Assembly (NCBI GenBank): GCA_963745035.1
Contig: CAVUVW010000017.1
Span: forward strand, 288,001 to 352,000
DNA from: an uncultured delta proteobacterium
GTDB lineage: Bacteria; Desulfobacterota; Binatia; UBA9968
DNA: 64,000 nt
Direction: 5' to 3'
The position numbers and the translations under genes are program-made. The notes under the pieces were generated by a model. The model saw only the letters and a program-made list of their open reading frames with translations. It made no database searches and was not told where the DNA came from. How positions within the stretch are numbered: the stretch's first letter is position 1; every line of letters starts with the position of its first letter. Of the stretch, positions 10,434-34,055 are shown piece after piece.

Positions 10434-11447
10434 TCAGTTTCGTTTCATCGCCTCTTGCACGTATCCCGACTTTTCCAGCCGGTCGATGAATGAACTGTCG
10501 ACCAGCTCGGCGGCTTTGAGCTTGCCCATGCGCGGATTCATCCGCAGCAGCGCGTCGATCATGTTTTGCACGCCGGCCAAAGGTACGTTAGGGCTTTTGG
10601 TTTTGGCGTGCATTTCCAAGGTCGCATCGTACATGATCTGAACGCTTTGCGGCGTGCTCAGCTTCAAGCGCCGGGCGAGCACGTTCTTGACCACCTTCTC
10701 GTTGGCTGGATTCGGCAGGAAAGCGAGGCCGTCGATGGTGCCCTTGAGAAACGCTTCGATTTGCTGCGGACTCTCTTTGACGAAACGCCGCGAACCAACC
10801 AGCACCGTGTTGAGATAAGGAACATCGGCTTTGGTCAGATCGGCCATGACTGTGAGCCCTTTCTCTTTCGCCGCCTGCCCGAAACCCGGCTCTAACGGCG
10901 TCGCATCGATCCGGCCGCTGGCGAGCGCCGCTACGCGATCGGGCTGGGTTCCGACCTGCATGATGGCGATCTTATCTCGCACCGGGTCCAACCCGAGCGA
11001 TTGCAGCGCAACTTCGGCCGCCAGGTGGCTGCCCGAGCCGAACGTGCTGATGGCAACACGCTTACCCTTGAGATCGGCGGGCTGGCGCACCTGAGGTAGA
11101 ACCCAAAACTGATAAGGGAGAATATGAATCGTGCCGGCAAGAATGACGAGATCGGCTCCGCCCGACACGGCGCCCGCCGTCGGGCCCACACTGGTGGAAG
11201 CCAATTTAGCTTCGCCGGCGACCAGTGCCTGCGACGTCACCGAGCCGCTGCTTATGAAAACGGAAGAAACGTCGAGCCCATGTTTCTTATAAAAGCCTTG
11301 GTCCTCGCCGACCCACAAGCTCGCGTGCGTGGATATGAGTCCGGCGTATGCGACCAAAACTTTTCTTGAATCTTGCGCCCCCGCGTGAAAAGCGAGGGCG
11401 CCGACGAATAGGACAGCCAACAAAGCTCCGAGCATTTTCTTTTGCAT
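10434..11447 (-). CDS. SsuA/NMT1-like substrate-binding protein
   Basis: GAGGAG RBS, signal peptide, LWVGEDQGFYKKHGLDV and DLKGKRVAISTFGSGS. Confidence 0.9.
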   Translation of the reverse strand: MQKKMLGALLAVLFVGALAFHAGAQDSRKVLVAYAGLISTHASLWVGEDQGFYKKHGLDVSSVFISSGSVTSQALVAGEAKLASTSVGPTAGAVSGGADLVILAGTIHILPYQFWVLPQVRQPADLKGKRVAISTFGSGSHLAAEVALQSLGLDPVRDKIAIMQVGTQPDRVAALASGRIDATPLEPGFGQAAKEKGLTVMADLTKADVPYLNTVLVGSRRFVKESPQQIEAFLKGTIDGLAFLPNPANEKVVKNVLARRLKLSTPQSVQIMYDATLEMHAKTKSPNVPLAGVQNMIDALLRMNPRMGKLKAAELVDSSFIDRLEKSGYVQEAMKRN

Positions 11448-11621
11448 CTGAGCTCCTCTTTGTCGATGGAAGTACTCGGCCTCGATACGCCCTCGCGTCT
11501 ACCGTGATTACTCCCGACACATGCAGCAACGATCGTGATAGCCGCCGACGATCCATCACATGTCTCATCGAACCAATCCATAGAAGGTGCGCGGTACTAG
11601 CCCGCTGAAGAAACCGTCTTG

Positions 11622-11747
11622 CAGGCTGCTCAAAAAGATCCAGAGGCGAGGCGCGCGATAAATCGTCGAGCGGAGGCGTACATCGGCAGTACGTTGACGC
11701 GAGGCGATTGAGCGCAACGAAGCCTATGGGTCTTTTTCAGCAGCCTG
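11622..11747. mobile_element. MITE-like element, 126 bp, with 21-bp terminal inverted repeats
   Basis: CAGGCTGCTCAAAAAGATCCA ... TGGGTCTTTTTCAGCAGCCTG (2 mismatches). No coding capacity; it abuts the TAA stop at 11748-11750. Confidence 0.7.
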
Positions 11748-12522
11748 TTAATCCCAAATTCCTTCCGGCAGCGGCAGTCCGGCAAGATCGTCGGCGGCGA
11801 GCCTGCCGTCGGGCTCGATGCCGAAGCGCTCGAGGACGGCGATCATCTGCCGCGCATGCTGCGCCGAGTGCCAGGTTGAGCGCTCCAAAAGCTGATGCAT
11901 CGGCGGTGTGCCGTAGAATGTCTTGATCTTTTGCCGGCATGATTTGTCCGCGAGCCCGCCCCACCAGGTCTCGATGCGCGCGATAACGCCGTCGCCGTAC
12001 GTCGCGATTTCCGCGCCGGTGACGCAGCTTCCCTCCGCGGGCGGCACGTTGGCATTGTTGGTCTGGTATTCGACATCATCGATGGCGGTTTCGAGAAACG
12101 CCTCGCCGATGCGGAAGATGTGATGGCTTAAAAGCCGGATCGAGCGGTCGCGATTTTCAATCGCGCGCTGCGCAAACTGGGGGTTAGGAATCTGCCGGAC
12201 ATAGCGCTGCGCGGCGCGCAGCACCGTGATCCATTTTGCAGACCAGCACCGCCGGAGGAAGCGGACTGTGTCCGCTCCCTTGCAAACCGACGAATTCGGC
12301 GACGTCCTCCATGTTCTGGCAGAAGATGAACTGGCCGTCCTTTGCCAGCACCGGCACGCTCTGTGCGCCGAGGCTGAGCAACTGTTCTCGTCCCCCGGAA
12401 TCGTTCAGAACGTCGATCGTGTTGAAGTCCACGCCTTTTTTCGAAAGAAACTCTTTCGTTCTAAGGCAGCTGCTTCAACCGGGTTGGGTGAACAGAACGA
12501 ACTTGTCGCCGGCGATCTCCAT
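11748..12522 (-). CDS. Putative selenoprotein: glutaredoxin/NrdH-like UxxC domain fused to a DinB/YfiT-like domain (~257 aa; Sec at codon 16; one extra base near 12235)
   Basis: ATG at 12522 after GGGGG: MEIAGDKFVLFTQPG-TGA(12477-12475)-SSCLRTKEFLSKKGVDFNTIDV...QSVPVL, in frame with track ORF 12184..12432. After a +1 indel it continues as WITVLRAAQRY...LLSHHIF...WHSAQHARQM (track ORF 11748..12224). A SECIS-like hairpin follows the TGA. Confidence 0.85.
12433..12467 (-). promoter_or_regulatory. Bacterial SECIS-like hairpin of the Grx-DinB gene
   Basis: mRNA GCCUU-AGAA-CGAAAG-AGUUU-CUUUCG-AAAA-AAGGC: two helices and a 4x4 internal loop. The apical loop starts 22 nt after the UGA. Confidence 0.8.
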
Positions 12523-12659
12523 CGTCGCGCCCCCGCGATGACCCACTAAACTGCGCGGAACCTATCAACCGTCACGGAAGGTGTCAATCAAGATCATGCG
12601 ATGGCACCCATCGCTTTTTCTCTTTCTCGCGCCTGTTGTCTCGCGCCTCACTCCTAATG

Positions 12660-13660
12660 CTATTTATCAAACGCGCCGCTTTTCTGGAGCTCGACCAGAT
12701 ACCGCCGGTCGATCATATCGGCCGGTTTGATCGCCTTGGCGCGCGGATCGACCGGCGCGATTTCATCGAGCGAAGCCTGAAGCGCCGCGTCGGCGATTTC
12801 GAGCCGGCGCTCCAGTGCGGGAATCTCCGATTGATACGCCGCGTCCAGAATCTTGGTGTCGTTGATGCGCAGATACTTGCCGAGCACCTTGTAGACAAAC
12901 GGCTTGTCCGTGTGGAGAATTCTTGCCGACTCCGCCATGACGCGCATGAATCTGCCGATCACCGGGCCGCGCTTGTTGATCATGGAACGAAGAGTCACGA
13001 ATTGCGTCGCGCCGTAGGGAATGCGCATCTCCGGCCCGTTGATTACATAACGAAAGCCGCGCGATACCGCCGCCGAGTCGCCAGGCGCAACCAGACCAGC
13101 GGCATCGACACTGCCGGCCACTAACGCCGCCAGCGTCTCCGGCCCGCCGCCGGTTTGGATCGTTTGAATATCCTTGCTGGCATCCATGCCCAATCGTTTG
13201 AGCGCCTGTATAGTAAAATAATGAGTATTGCCGCCAAAGCGGCCTACGGCGACCTTCTTGCCTTTGAGATCCTCGGGACGCTTGATGTCGGGCTTGCCGA
13301 GAATGCTGTGAGTCAAAATATTTTTTACGCCGCCGATAAAAACCAAATCGGTAAAGCCCTGAACATAAGCGCGCACATTGCCGACCGCGCCCGTAACGCC
13401 AATCTCGGCATCACCGTTCAATGTCGCGGCGGTGGCGACGGGTGACGACGGAATAAACACGAGACGAAAATCCAGATCGTACTTTTTGAAGAGCCCGGCT
13501 TCCTGAGCGATCCACGGCATCGACTGAGACATGACCTGCGCCGAGTGCAGGCCGATCAGGCGATCCGCCGCGAGCAAACCATTCGGAAAAGAAGAATCCA
13601 TCCGATGAGCGCGGCCGCGGGAGCCAATTGGCGAAGCAAACTGCCTAGCTGAGTGCGCAT
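12660..13660 (-). CDS. SsuA/NMT1-like substrate-binding protein (frameshift in the signal peptide near 13600)
   Basis: ATG at 13660 after GGAGAGG; PWIAQEAGLFKKYDLD and DLKGKKVAVGRFGG. Confidence 0.85.
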
Positions 13661-27214: not shown

Positions 27215-28616
<1,402 letters not shown>

Positions 28617-28670: not shown

Positions 28671-30708
<2,038 letters not shown>

Positions 30709-30788: not shown

Positions 30789-31844
30789 ATGCTTTTGAAA
30801 ACGAGAAAAGCCGTGCGGCTGACGCAAGAGGTCAAGGCCGCGGGTTGAGCCGCCAAGCTCGGCCCAGCCGACCTCGTGCAAGTTTTGCACGGCCTGCCCA
30901 AGTTTAACCATCCCGACATGCTGGTCGGCACCGAAACCGCCGACGATGCCGGGGTGTATCGACTGCGCCCCGACCTCGCCATCGTCAACACCGTGGATTT
31001 TTTCACGCCCATCGTCGACGACCCCTACATTTTTGGTCAGATCTCGGCGGCCAATTCGTTGAGCGACGTCTACGCGATGGGGGGCGAGCCCAAAACCTGC
31101 ATGAACATCGTCTGCTTTCCCAAAGGCAAGATGGACATCGAAATTCTCGGTGAGATCTTGAAAGGCGGCGCCGAGAAGGTCAAAGAAAGCGGCGCGGTGG
31201 TGATCGGCGGTCACAGCATCATCGATGAAGAAATCAAGTTCGGCATGGCCGTGACCGGCGTGATTCATCCTGACAAGATCTTCCGCAATGTCGGCGTTCA
31301 GGAAGGCGATGTACTGATCCTGACTAAACCGCTGGGCACCGGAATCATTACGACCGCGCTCAAAAAGGGCAAAGCTTCGGAAGAAAGTGTCGCGGAAGCC
31401 GTCAAATCGATGACGACTCTCAACGCCGCCGCGTCCGCCGTAGCGCGCAAGCATCCCGTACATGCCTGCTCCGATGTCACTGGTTTTGGCATTCTCGGTC
31501 ACTCTCTGGAAATGGCGAGCGGCAGCGGCGTGACCTTGGTCATCGAATCGGCCAAGCTGCCGCTGCTCCGCGGCGCGCCGCGCCTGGCCGAAAAGGGCTA
31601 CGTCACCGGCGGTTGCAAACGGAATCAGGATTATTTGTCGGACAAGATGGTCATCGACAAAGGGCTGCGAGAAGGACTCGTTCAAGTGGCGCTCGATCCG
31701 CAAACCTCGGGCGGCTTGTTGATCGCCGTCGCCAAACGCCACGCCGCCAAGCTGCTCGACGATCTGCGCGGCGCCGGCGTCGCTCACGCCGCCGAAGTCG
31801 GCTACGCCACCGCGCTGCAAAAACCCTGGGTTCGCCTTGCCTAA
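30789..31844 (+). CDS. selD: Selenide, water dikinase, selenocysteine-containing form (Sec at codon 20; 351 aa)
   Basis: ATG 30789 MLLKTRKAVRLTQEVKAAG-TGA(30846-30848)-AAKLGPADLVQVL, in frame with track ORF 30876..31844 (DDAGVY, TVDFFTPIVDDP, ANSLSDVYAMGG, DVTGFG, DPQTSGGLL). The TGA falls at the catalytic G-[C/U]-x-x-K position. Confidence 0.95.
30875..30891 (+). promoter_or_regulatory. Bacterial SECIS-like hairpin of selD
   Basis: CGUGCA-AGUUU-UGCACG, a perfect stem. The loop starts 32 nt after the UGA. Confidence 0.75.
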
Positions 31845-31951: not shown

Positions 31952-34055
31952 ATGCCGGCACCGGACTCGCTGCAAAGCCTCGCGCGCCTTTACAATCTGC
32001 AAACAGCCTACTTTGACGGACTCGGACACCTGCGCAAAGCGCCGCCGGAAGCGATTCTGAGAGTTCTCAAGTCGCTCGGCGCCGAGCTGGAGTCTTTGGC
32101 GGATGTCACCGCCGCGCTGCGCGCGCGCCGCCAAGCGCTTTGGCAGCGGGTCATCGAGCCGATCACGGTCGCATGGCAAGACAGGCCGTTCCAGATAAAG
32201 CTGCGGCTGCCGGTCCGCTGGGCGGAAGCACCGGTCGCCGGCGAAATCCGCCTCGAAAACGGCGCCGCCATCGATTGCGTGTGGAAAGAGATCAAGACCG
32301 CTTTGCCGATCATCCGCGACGTCGAAAGCGCGCGCTATACAGTCCGCAGCCTGGTTTTAGCGGCGCCGCCGCCGCTCGGCTATCACGAGCTTCATCTTCG
32401 AGTCGGCGATCTCGATCTCCGATCGCAGGTTCTTTCCGCGCCCTATCGGGCCTACGCTCCGCGTGAGTCGGCGAAGCGCTGGGGCGTTTTCTGCCCGCTC
32501 TACGCGCTTCATTCCGCACGCAGTTGGGGCGCGGGAGATTTTTCCGACTTGGCCGAGCTTGCGCGGCAGAGCGGCGCGCTGGGCGCTCAGGCGGTGGCCA
32601 CCCTGCCGATGCTTGCCGGTTTTTTTGACGAGCCGTTCAATCCGAGTCCCTACGCGCCGGTGAGCCGGCTTTTCTGGAATGAATTTTATCTCGACGTCGC
32701 GAGCATTCCCGAGTTCGCCGAATGCGCGGCGGCGCGCGCGCTCGCCGGCTCGGAGGAATTTCGCGGCGAGCTTGATCGCGCGCGCGCCCAGCCCCTGATC
32801 GATTACCGCCGAATCACTGCGCTCAAGCGCAAAGTTACCGAGCCAATGCTCGCCTATCTTTGTTCATCGTCTTCCGCGCGCCGGGAGAGCTTCGAAAAGT
32901 TCGTCGCTGCCCGGCCCGCTCTTCAGGATTACGCCGCCTTTCGCGCCAAAACCGAGCGCGAGCGGAAAATTTGGTCCCACTGGTCCGAGCCGGAGCGCGG
33001 TGGAGCTTTGAGGCCGGACGGCTACGACGATGCCGCGCGGCGCTATCATCTGTACGTTCAGTGGCTTTGCGACGAGCAGATGGGTCGGCTAGGCAACGAG
33101 ACCAAAGCGAACAGCGCCGCGCTCTACCTCGACTTTCCGCTCGGCGTCAATCGCGACGGCTACGATGTTTGGCGCCATCGAGATTTATTCGCGTTGGAAG
33201 CGTCCGGAGGCGCGCCCCCCGACGGGCTTTTCGTCAAAGGTCAAAACTGGGGATTTCCGCCGCAACATCCGGGCACTGTCCGGCGCCAGGGTTACCGCTA
33301 TTACCGGGAGTGCCTGCGTCACCACATGGCTCACGCCTCGATGCTGCGGATCGACCACGTGATGGGCTTGCATCGCGTTTTTTGGGTGCCCGACGGCTTC
33401 AGCGCCGCCGAAGGTCTTTACGTCCACCATCGCGCCGAAGAGCACTACGCGGTCTTGAGCTTGGAATCTCATCGTTGCCGGGTGCAAATCGTCGGTGAGA
33501 ATCTCGGCACGGTGCCGGACTATGTGAATCACGCTCTGGCGAGCCATGGAATCCTCGGCATGCACGTAGGTCAATTCGGTGTGAGCGCCGAGCCCGAGCA
33601 CGTGCTCGATCCTGCGCCACCGAATACCGTGGCGAGCCTCAACACCCATGACACGCCGACGTTCATGAGCTTTTGGACCGGCGCCGATATCGACGATCGA
33701 CTCGATCTCGGCTCGATCGGTTCAGAGCAGGCGGCGCAGGAACGCGGCTACCGCGCGGCCCAACGCGACGCGCTCATCGGCCATTTTGGCGTCGCCGCCG
33801 CGTCCGCCGATGATGCCGCCGCCGCGGTTCTCCGGGCGTGGCTACAGTTTCTTGCAGATTGCCCCGTAGAATTTTTGCTCATCAATCTGGAAGATCTCTG
33901 GCTCGAAACCGCTGCCGCAAAATGTCCCCGGCACCTGGCAGGAGCGCCCCAACTGGCAGCGCAAAGCCCGCTTCAGCCTCGAAGAGCTCCGCGCCCTGCC
34001 CGAGTTCGCCGACCTGCTGAGAAGAATCGGCGACATCCGCCGCGCGATCGGGTAA
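31952..34055 (+). CDS. malQ: 4-alpha-glucanotransferase (GH77), indel near 33911
   Basis: WGVFCPLYAL..SWGAGDFSDL, PSPYAPVSRLFWNE, GAPPD..GQNWGFPP, LRIDHVMG, GENLGTVP and NTHDTPT. The true tail QNVPGTWQERPNWQRK ends at 34055. Confidence 0.93.

Follow-up and report, generated by a model that had tools for sequence, protein, structure and literature searches.

A predicted selenocysteine-containing glutaredoxin–DinB protein family, hidden behind an in-frame TGA

Within a 64,000-nucleotide stretch of an uncultured member of the Binatia (assembly GCA_963745035.1, contig CAVUVW010000017.1, positions 288,001 to 352,000), hereafter the window, the minus strand between 12522 and 11748 very probably encodes a selenoprotein of about 257 residues belonging to a large family, common among soil bacteria and so far unannotated. 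The predicted chain joins an N-terminal glutaredoxin-like domain, whose active site would begin with selenocysteine (Sec, U), to a C-terminal helical bundle of the DinB/YfiT type. The selenoprotein assignment is as solid as sequence analysis permits, and the locus is best described as a new and abundant two-domain architecture served by what appears to be the usual bacterial route of Sec decoding. An original prediction, made from the letters of the window, had proposed a hidden selenoprotein with Sec first in a thioredoxin-fold UxxC motif; the conserved TGA, its cysteine (Cys) counterparts, the hairpin that follows it and the Sec machinery of the genome support that proposal, and each of its statements about the sequence could be located in the window.

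The gene is laid out across two frames of the minus strand. Frame A opens with an ATG at 12522, continues through MEIAGDKFVLFTQPG, meets an in-frame TGA at 12477-12475 and proceeds through SSCLRTKEFLSKKG...QSVPVL; with the TGA read as U, the chain becomes MEIAGDKFVLFTQPG-U-SSC-LRTKEFL...QSVPVL, and translation bears out both the U-SSC motif and the cis-Pro VP motif that had been proposed. From about 12240 the +1 frame stays open over the region in which frame A runs into junk, and reads ...KWITVLRAAQRYVRQ...NRDRSIRLLSHHIFRIGEAFLE...FYGTPPMHQLLERSTWHSAQHARQ...GIWD to a stop TAA at 11750-11748. Its segments KWITVLRAAQ...SHHIF...WHSAQHARQ include the domain with SHHIF and HSAQHARQ into which the chain had been said to continue past one extra base.

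11748..12522, minus strand: whole gene, about 257 codons with the TGA read as Sec and one extra base skipped
12475..12477, minus strand: TGA, predicted Sec codon for residue 16, the first of U-S-S-C (12466-12477), on the evidence of conservation, Cys homologues and contigs
12442..12458, minus strand: core hairpin of the candidate Sec insertion sequence (SECIS), CGAAAGA-GUU-UCUUUCG, a 7-bp stem with the GUU loop at 12449-12451
12184..12186, minus strand: frame A stop TAA, 17 junk codons past the shift

The TGA codon, its hairpin and the Sec machinery

Conservation of the TGA was assessed in two overlapping sets of genomes. A scan of one genome per species returned 203 relatives among 226 matched stretches, and the codon was examined in the best 80 loci, some of which come from the same genomes as a set of 41 related genomes of the window's own order, 20 of them with a match. 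TGA stands at this codon in every one of the 79 informative loci, the eightieth being cut by a contig end, and its conservation is therefore beyond chance. The source labels of these loci are those of metagenome-assembled genomes (MAGs) of Candidatus Binatia, Deltaproteobacteria, Burkholderiales, Betaproteobacteria and a few others, and a 27%-identical copy from another family of the same order keeps U, as RPG-U-FTC. The 15 codons upstream of the TGA are conserved in frame (FVLFTQPG), and a 241-residue open frame starts directly 3' of it in all 14 full-length same-genus hits. No alternative letter was found at 12475-12477 in contigs from four metagenome studies that cover the codon. Since TGA also serves as the ordinary stop of several homologues, the genetic code has not been reassigned.

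Homologues with Cys at the site point the same way. Five database proteins (P0156, P0170, P0181, P0182 and P0186) are full length at 262-278 residues and read QPG/APG-C-SSCLRTKEFL. An order-level sample of 301 genomes from the order of genome G041 (labelled Burkholderiales) contained 40 genomes with a match and 50 near-full-length matches, 40 of them with one TGA and ten with none; all ten no-stop copies have TGC or TGT at the site, so that Cys aligns to the TGA in full-length, single-chain homologues as had been anticipated. None of the outcomes named beforehand as fatal to the original prediction was observed: homologues carry Cys at this codon and hold the two domains in a single chain. The counts for the 41-genome and 301-genome sets, and one locus (L007), take in two unpublished genomes (G005 and G250), of which the conclusions are independent. 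Three genomes of the order-level sample (G207, G250 and G112) have several TGA-containing paralogues each, with up to four matches per genome. In a quick tree with Shimodaira–Hasegawa-like approximate likelihood ratio (SH-aLRT) support, a single clade (support 81) takes in 90 of the 91 Sec forms, and the Binatia-type copies form a nested clade of their own within it (support 98); as the tree has a midpoint root only, neither a donor nor a direction of Sec/Cys change is claimed.

The part of PMC1088965 available to us describes the bacterial SECIS as a stem-loop shortly 3' of the UGA, capped by a small loop that contains G. The candidate hairpin, to judge by its letters, agrees with that description in its 7-bp stem and GUU loop: the 17-nt core, CGAAAGAGUUUCUUUCG, starts 16 nt past the TGA and sits in an extended fold at 12423-12477. 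Counted from the TGA, a segment of 55 nt has a folding energy of -18.4 kcal/mol (z -2.55), a stability equalled by 4 of 200 shuffles. All seven core pairs form in 81 of 81 distinct sequences, in which a single A-to-G change preserves a G-U pair. Because the core is invariant, covariation is uninformative, and codon entropy and the contrast with Cys forms were used instead. Among 76 distinct genes the hairpin codons K-E-F-L-S have entropies of 0.1, 0, 0, 0 and 0 bits, as against 0.18-2.24 bits for each of the other conserved degenerate codons; the SECIS-like hairpin that had been proposed to follow the TGA is thus present, and its synonymous sites are frozen. The ten Cys forms all lack the hairpin and have varied codons at its sites, yet nine of them keep the residues K-E-F/Y-L (the tenth has K-E-Y-M), and the constraint is therefore tied to the TGA and not to the protein. 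The hairpin is also kept in all four of the more distant TGA paralogues that were read.

The genome has the genes needed to decode such a codon, with selA, selB, selD and tRNA-Sec all found, albeit with the selB frame broken in this assembly. Three of the four lie in the window, and the tRNA-Sec (76.7 bits) is on the same contig outside it:

27264..28577, plus strand: selA, TIGR00474, 592 bits, above cut-off
28671..30567, plus strand: selB, frameshifted near 30075, TIGR00475 346.9 bits over positions 2-383
30789..31844, plus strand: selD with its own in-frame TGA, TIGR00476, 384.6 bits, one internal TGA

The selD gene reads KAAG-U-AAKLG, the selenoprotein form of selenophosphate synthetase. 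Among relatives, selA scores above cut-off in 19 of the 20 gene-bearing genomes of the window's order (the exception is a 670-contig assembly), in five of five differently labelled genomes with a TGA form, and in only one of ten with a Cys form; the own-order count does not discriminate, because 38 of the 41 genomes there have selA. TGA forms therefore co-occur with selA, in line with the expectation that they would be confined to genomes with sel genes. The original prediction had further pointed to selABD some 15 kb away: selA does lie 14.7 kb from the gene in the window, but in same-genus relatives the gene and selA are on different contigs.

Domain architecture and extent of the family

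12325..12498, minus strand: glutaredoxin/NrdH-like thioredoxin-fold domain, residues 9-66, Pfam PF00462, with cis-Pro SVPVL at 12346-12360
11751..12233, minus strand, +1 frame: DinB/YfiT-like four-helix-bundle domain, assigned from a weak DinB_2 match and the predicted structure
12120-12122, 11868-11870 and 11856-11858, minus strand: codons of the invariant His residues, the first being the second His of SHHIF and the other two those of WHSAQH

The N-terminal domain is matched by the Pfam Glutaredoxin family PF00462 (E 2.1e-14, 53.9 bits against a cut-off of 22.9) and, in a profile search of the PDB, by the clostridial cGrx1 7c10 (E 1.6e-15). For the C-terminal domain, no PDB DinB protein was matched by sequence profile; the homologue P0122 remains under the DinB_2 cut-off (17.1 vs 24.8), and a distant homologue, P0123, exceeds those of both DinB_2 (31.7 vs 24.8) and DinB (28.8 vs 23). 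A structure model built on 32 sequences (predicted local distance difference test, pLDDT, 93.8; predicted template modelling score, pTM, 0.90) gives the N-terminal domain a beta-alpha-beta-alpha-beta-beta-alpha order. Structural comparison of the two modelled domains returned the following matches (rmsd, root-mean-square deviation):

N-terminal domain (about 5-81), thioredoxin-like BC3987: Z 13.5, rmsd 1.6, 77 residues aligned
N-terminal domain (about 5-81), clostridial cGrx1: Z 12.3, rmsd 1.7, 75 residues
N-terminal domain (about 5-81), NrdH redoxins: Z 10.7-11.6, rmsd 1.9-2.4, 73-75 residues
C-terminal domain (about 86-245), DinB/YfiT DR0053: Z 15.9, rmsd 2.4, 144 of 144 residues
C-terminal domain (about 86-245), YfiT: Z 13.4, rmsd 3.4, 159 residues
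C-terminal domain (about 86-245), mycothiol-dependent maleylpyruvate isomerase: Z 13.1, rmsd 3.2, 160 residues
C-terminal domain (about 86-245), M. tuberculosis mycothiol S-transferase with mycothiol and Zn2+ (8f5v): Z 13.1, rmsd 3.7, 142 residues
C-terminal domain (about 86-245), S. aureus BstA: Z 9.8, rmsd 3.8, 135 residues
C-terminal domain (about 86-245), DinB domains of OvsA and EgtB: Z 10.4-11.7, rmsd 3.8-3.9, 133-141 residues

Six further DinB-like, putative metal-binding or metal-dependent entries matched the C-terminal domain at Z 13.5-14.9 (rmsd 2.7-3.5, 143-149 residues aligned). The best of its Z values exceed about 13, the level at which the tool warns about helical bundles, and Foldseek agrees with the DinB-type assignment. 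Across the same 32 sequences, which reach down to 27% identity, invariant residues include P14, G15, U/C16, C19, K23, E24, F25, L26 and P57 in the redoxin domain and R124, H134, H218, H222, R224 and Q225 in the bundle. An early H134 together with an H-x3-H pair (H218, H222) in the last long helix would be the expected pattern of a DinB metal site. The proposal of a redoxin and a DinB/YfiT-type domain in one chain with the three-His set retained is accordingly upheld, as homologues are single-chain proteins in which these His residues do not vary. One database protein, P0376, has S-T-S-S in place of C/U-x-x-C and has lost both redox residues.

The family is large and has been overlooked in annotation. 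A HMMER scan of 1.84 billion cluster representatives (50% identity) returned 233 at E <= 1e-30 and 830 at E <= 1e-10. Among the best 150 representatives, CxxC was seen in 54 (40 by script, 14 by eye) and SxxS in one; the remainder are N-terminally short, as is to be expected when gene callers stop at the Sec codon or contigs end. Database names include 'DinB family protein, partial', 'glutaredoxin family protein, partial' and 'hypothetical protein', and the sequencing runs with near-identical DNA are labelled as soil, rhizosphere, plant and winery metagenomes. For the window protein and two full-length homologues, no curated NCBIfam model scored over its cut-off (window protein: NF041212 39.6/66, NF041211 25.2/100, NF041114 19/72, NF047338 24.5/97, NF045501 24.4/325). 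A literature search found no DinB-type selenoprotein or glutaredoxin–DinB (Grx-DinB) fusion, although the supplementary tables of databases such as BSepDB may list one, and nothing on selenoproteins in Binatia; the accessible portions of a 2026 review (PMC13188914) and of the deep-Sep paper (PMC12013277) do not mention DinB.

Each half of the protein has known relatives. Sec-containing glutaredoxins (PF00462, UxxC) are an established prokaryotic selenoprotein family according to the available sections of PMC13188914 and PMC1088965. The predicted protein resembles them, and cGrx1 7c10 (solved in the dithiol form) in particular, in its thioredoxin fold, in a UxxC motif with Sec first at the start of helix 1, and in a bacterial SECIS within the open reading frame; it differs in that those are stand-alone proteins of about 80 residues, whereas here the redoxin makes up the N-terminal third of a 257-residue chain. 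The classical glutathione site of glutaredoxins, GG-x-DD, is here F-C/G-Q-N-x-E-D, with U-S-S-C as the active site. With B. subtilis YfiT, BstA and mycothiol S-transferase the C-terminal domain shares a four-helix bundle and an early His followed by a late H-x3-H pair, but its sequence similarity to the known DinB/YfiT S-transferases is marginal, and their known members are neither fused to a redoxin nor selenoproteins. The Uxx-star families of NCBIfam and HUGP/GUXX-star (NF045501) also have a glutaredoxin-like domain with Sec in the active site, and one of them is likewise a fusion; Uxx-star proteins presumably end soon after U, as their names also suggest, whereas here 241 residues follow it. 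Cytosolic glutathione S-transferases (GSTs) of the Cys type include the omega, lambda and Xi classes. They too place an all-helical domain after an N-terminal thioredoxin-fold domain bearing the nucleophile, a likeness that is an analogy of architecture only: membership of the GST family was considered and rejected, as Foldseek matched GSTs at an rmsd of 10-17 Å and the helical domain is a DinB bundle, not a GST C-domain.

The extra base and competing explanations

The frame shift within the gene appears nowhere else among the homologues compared. A search with the C-terminal part yielded 3219 proteins at E <= 0.001 among 3825 candidates, and of the best 120, 14 were fetched: all 13 that span the shift site read through it in one frame. 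The closest homologue, P0002, 99% identical over the aligned part, reads ...PLPPAVLVSKWITVLRAAQ..., with VLVSKW at the site, and the full-length same-genus hits are in one frame in 14 of 14 cases. All homologues read across the site without interruption, save one that is broken elsewhere; that copy (loci L017 and L085, one genome, G018) runs out of frame for about 35 codons after ...KEFLSRK and then regains it, the result of either two compensating indels or a further assembly flaw. When the proteins of three relatives were aligned to the window by tblastn, the frame switched at 12232-12239. Four metagenome runs from four studies provided two bridging contigs over the site, with five and three other differing letters: the contig from run X1 omits 12239 and restores the frame as V-S-K-W, and the contig from run X3 omits 12241, has a substitution at 12238 and restores it as V-E-K-W. 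The other two runs (X2 and X9) gave no contig over the shift site. The original prediction had the chain continue after one extra base; homologues and two near-identical contigs do not have it, and it is private to this assembly.

12234..12241, minus strand: site of the extra base (+1 frameshift), private to this assembly on the evidence of P0002, metagenome contigs and tblastn
From 31952: malQ-like 4-alpha-glucanotransferase gene, frameshifted at about 33895-33915, the break following ...NLEDL

Two other genes of the window are broken in a similar manner. In selB one extra base follows ...PGMDMEEL at about 30060-30080, after which the C-terminal winged-helix domains are in the next frame, with TIGR00475 profile positions 448-580 in another frame than positions 2-383. 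Past ...NLEDL the malQ-like gene continues as KPLPQNVPGTWQERPNWQRK in the next frame, as does its conserved tail, ...PQNVPGTWQERPNWQRK.... A frameshift scan of the window based on the phase of GC content at third codon positions (GC3), too noisy for counting, flagged the breaks of the Grx-DinB gene and of selB; that of the malQ-like gene was spotted by eye and then confirmed. Given that selB and the malQ-like gene are frameshifted in the same window, an assembly indel is the likelier cause of the extra base near 12239 and, in our estimation, a reasonably probable one, a real recent mutation being considerably less so. In either case the fault lies with this assembly or strain, and the frameshift has no part in the biology of the Grx-DinB family.

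A number of observations weigh against reading the locus as an intact selenoprotein gene interrupted by an assembly indel. Firstly, the core stem of the hairpin shows no variation and hence no covariation support, its lower-stem pairs form in only 18 to 80 of the 81 sequences, and a permissive-threshold Rfam search of 11400-12800 matched no family, there being evidently no Rfam model for bacterial SECIS elements of this kind that fires here. Secondly, the DinB_2 score of the window copy is 16.3 against a cut-off of 24.8 (E 0.014), and the gene's neighbours vary between lineages, so that context does not fix a substrate. Thirdly, selB is frameshifted here, and the break, if real, would leave the cell unable to insert Sec; no public run with the source reads was found (best word share 0.62). 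Finally, other contigs carry intact copies of rpoB, rpoC and three uvrA-type genes, so the assembly is not riddled with indels, two of the three breaks in the window fall in Sec-related genes, and each of the three consists of one added base that does not lie in a long homopolymer, unlike the classic long-read error.

These last points are also those that favour the best-placed alternative, namely that the family is real but its member here is a true pseudogene and, together with the broken selB, marks a lineage losing the use of Sec. Such a history fits with the undamaged state of some 16 kb of housekeeping genes elsewhere in the assembly, on other contigs, and with the lack of any contig or read that corrects the window's version in its own sample. 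One must consider, on the other side, that the unrelated malQ-like gene is broken in the same way, that a free-living genome of 7.4 Mb would not be expected to have three pseudogenes within 64 kb, that selA and selD (the latter with its own in-frame TGA) appear intact alongside a tRNA-Sec of 76.7 bits, and that the gene, apart from the shift, shows no further damage and matches an intact homologue at 99% identity over the aligned part. A pseudogene seems unlikely to us. Very improbable is a programmed +1 ribosomal frameshift by which production of the two-domain protein is controlled: neither frame is interrupted near the site, and the conserved domain is encoded in the downstream one, but a programmed site would be conserved, and there is none in the 13 of 13 spanning proteins, the translated loci or the two near-identical contigs, nor is a known shifty stop or slippery motif visible at CUG GUC UGC AAA AUG. 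Equally improbable is that the TGA is an ordinary stop separating genes for a leader peptide, a truncated redoxin and a DinB protein, as public gene callers imply by calling only the post-TGA part (200-238 residues), since those calls begin at many different internal codons and cut the redoxin past its active site, in-frame conservation extends over the 15 codons that precede the TGA, the Cys forms read as one chain, and the constraint on the hairpin is linked to the TGA.

Possible function, genomic context and implications

If the locus is read as a selenoprotein gene, its expression and chemistry can be sketched from analogy with better-known proteins. SelB with Sec-tRNA would bind the hairpin, so that the UGA is decoded as Sec. 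In the bundle, a divalent metal is probably bound together with a low-molecular-weight thiol or its conjugate; the three His residues would hold that metal, which would activate the thiol much as happens in the S-transferases for bacillithiol and mycothiol. An attack by the redoxin's selenolate on the sulfur (or selenium) of a bound mixed disulfide or conjugate may follow, with Cys19 resolving the selenenyl-sulfide. An enzymatic role appears plausible on these grounds; that the enzyme acts as a thiol-dependent transferase or reductase by this chemistry is put forward tentatively, by analogy with the DinB family, whose enzymes are S-transferases working with bacillithiol, mycothiol or glutathione (PMC4360819, in its available part).

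The neighbours of the gene in the window are NMT1-type binding proteins, an AMP-ligase, an SDR, an amidohydrolase, AzlC and hydantoinase B. They say little about function, because three same-genus genomes share only the Grx-DinB gene with the window over about 80 kb; the catabolic or detoxification step that had been read from these neighbours is thus without support from a conserved context. Directly against the gene's stop codon lies a 126-nt element (11622-11747) with 26-nt terminal inverted repeats that are 88% complementary, and 28 genome matches to it were found, 18 of them near full length (>110 of 141 query bases). Soil metagenome contigs stack on 11700-11761 to a summed depth in the thousands, and the element looks like a dispersed repeat of the miniature inverted-repeat transposable element (MITE) or repetitive extragenic palindromic (REP) kind. 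Elsewhere, in one Binatia subclade, an MmgE/PrpD-family gene is directly downstream of the Sec form in 13 loci, taken as seven genomes (L010, L012-L016, L059, L063, L064, L069, L071, L072 and L075), one of them with the gene on the opposite strand, and the Cys-form protein P0296 (721 residues) has an MmgE/PrpD domain fused N-terminally to the Grx-DinB module.

A different arrangement is seen in the Burkholderiales- and Betaproteobacteria-labelled loci (L074-L122), where the order is mnmA, grx-dinB, selA, selB on one strand. Among 99 loci examined, with flanks of 3 kb only and some loci cut, 38 have mnmA upstream, 25 have selA downstream in the same orientation and 18 have selB, every one of them within that group, and in 14 loci selA starts within about 370 nt of the Grx-DinB stop, as judged by alignment offsets. 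This conserved position beside selA-selB in Burkholderiales-labelled genomes is the most interesting lead to emerge from the analysis. It admits a second view of function, in which the Grx-DinB selenoprotein is an accessory part of the selenium-utilisation trait, a new 'sel' gene travelling with the Sec machinery: reactive selenium (selenide, or glutathione- or persulfide-type carriers) would be handled at the His3 metal site and by a Sec/Cys relay, and the protein would feed or protect SelD and SelA. Two features point towards it, the siting between mnmA, which encodes a tRNA 2-thiouridylase, and selA-selB, often within about 20-370 nt of selA, and a SECIS core that is identical in every TGA form read, across MAGs labelled as different phyla, but we regard such a role as rather improbable at present.

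Whichever role applies, database entries for these proteins lack the active site, because public gene calling truncates them at the Sec codon. Recognising the family would allow thousands of annotations to be corrected and would extend the bacterial selenoproteome by one new domain architecture, a task made easier by a 17-nt SECIS core that is clean, invariant and thus directly searchable. The locus also carries a caution, in that a 'frameshift' in a MAG needs comparison with relatives before it is interpreted. A Sec-redoxin joined to a DinB metal/thiol domain would bring together two detoxification chemistries known only separately, and the adjacency to selA-selB in Burkholderiales-labelled genomes offers a testable link to selenium handling.

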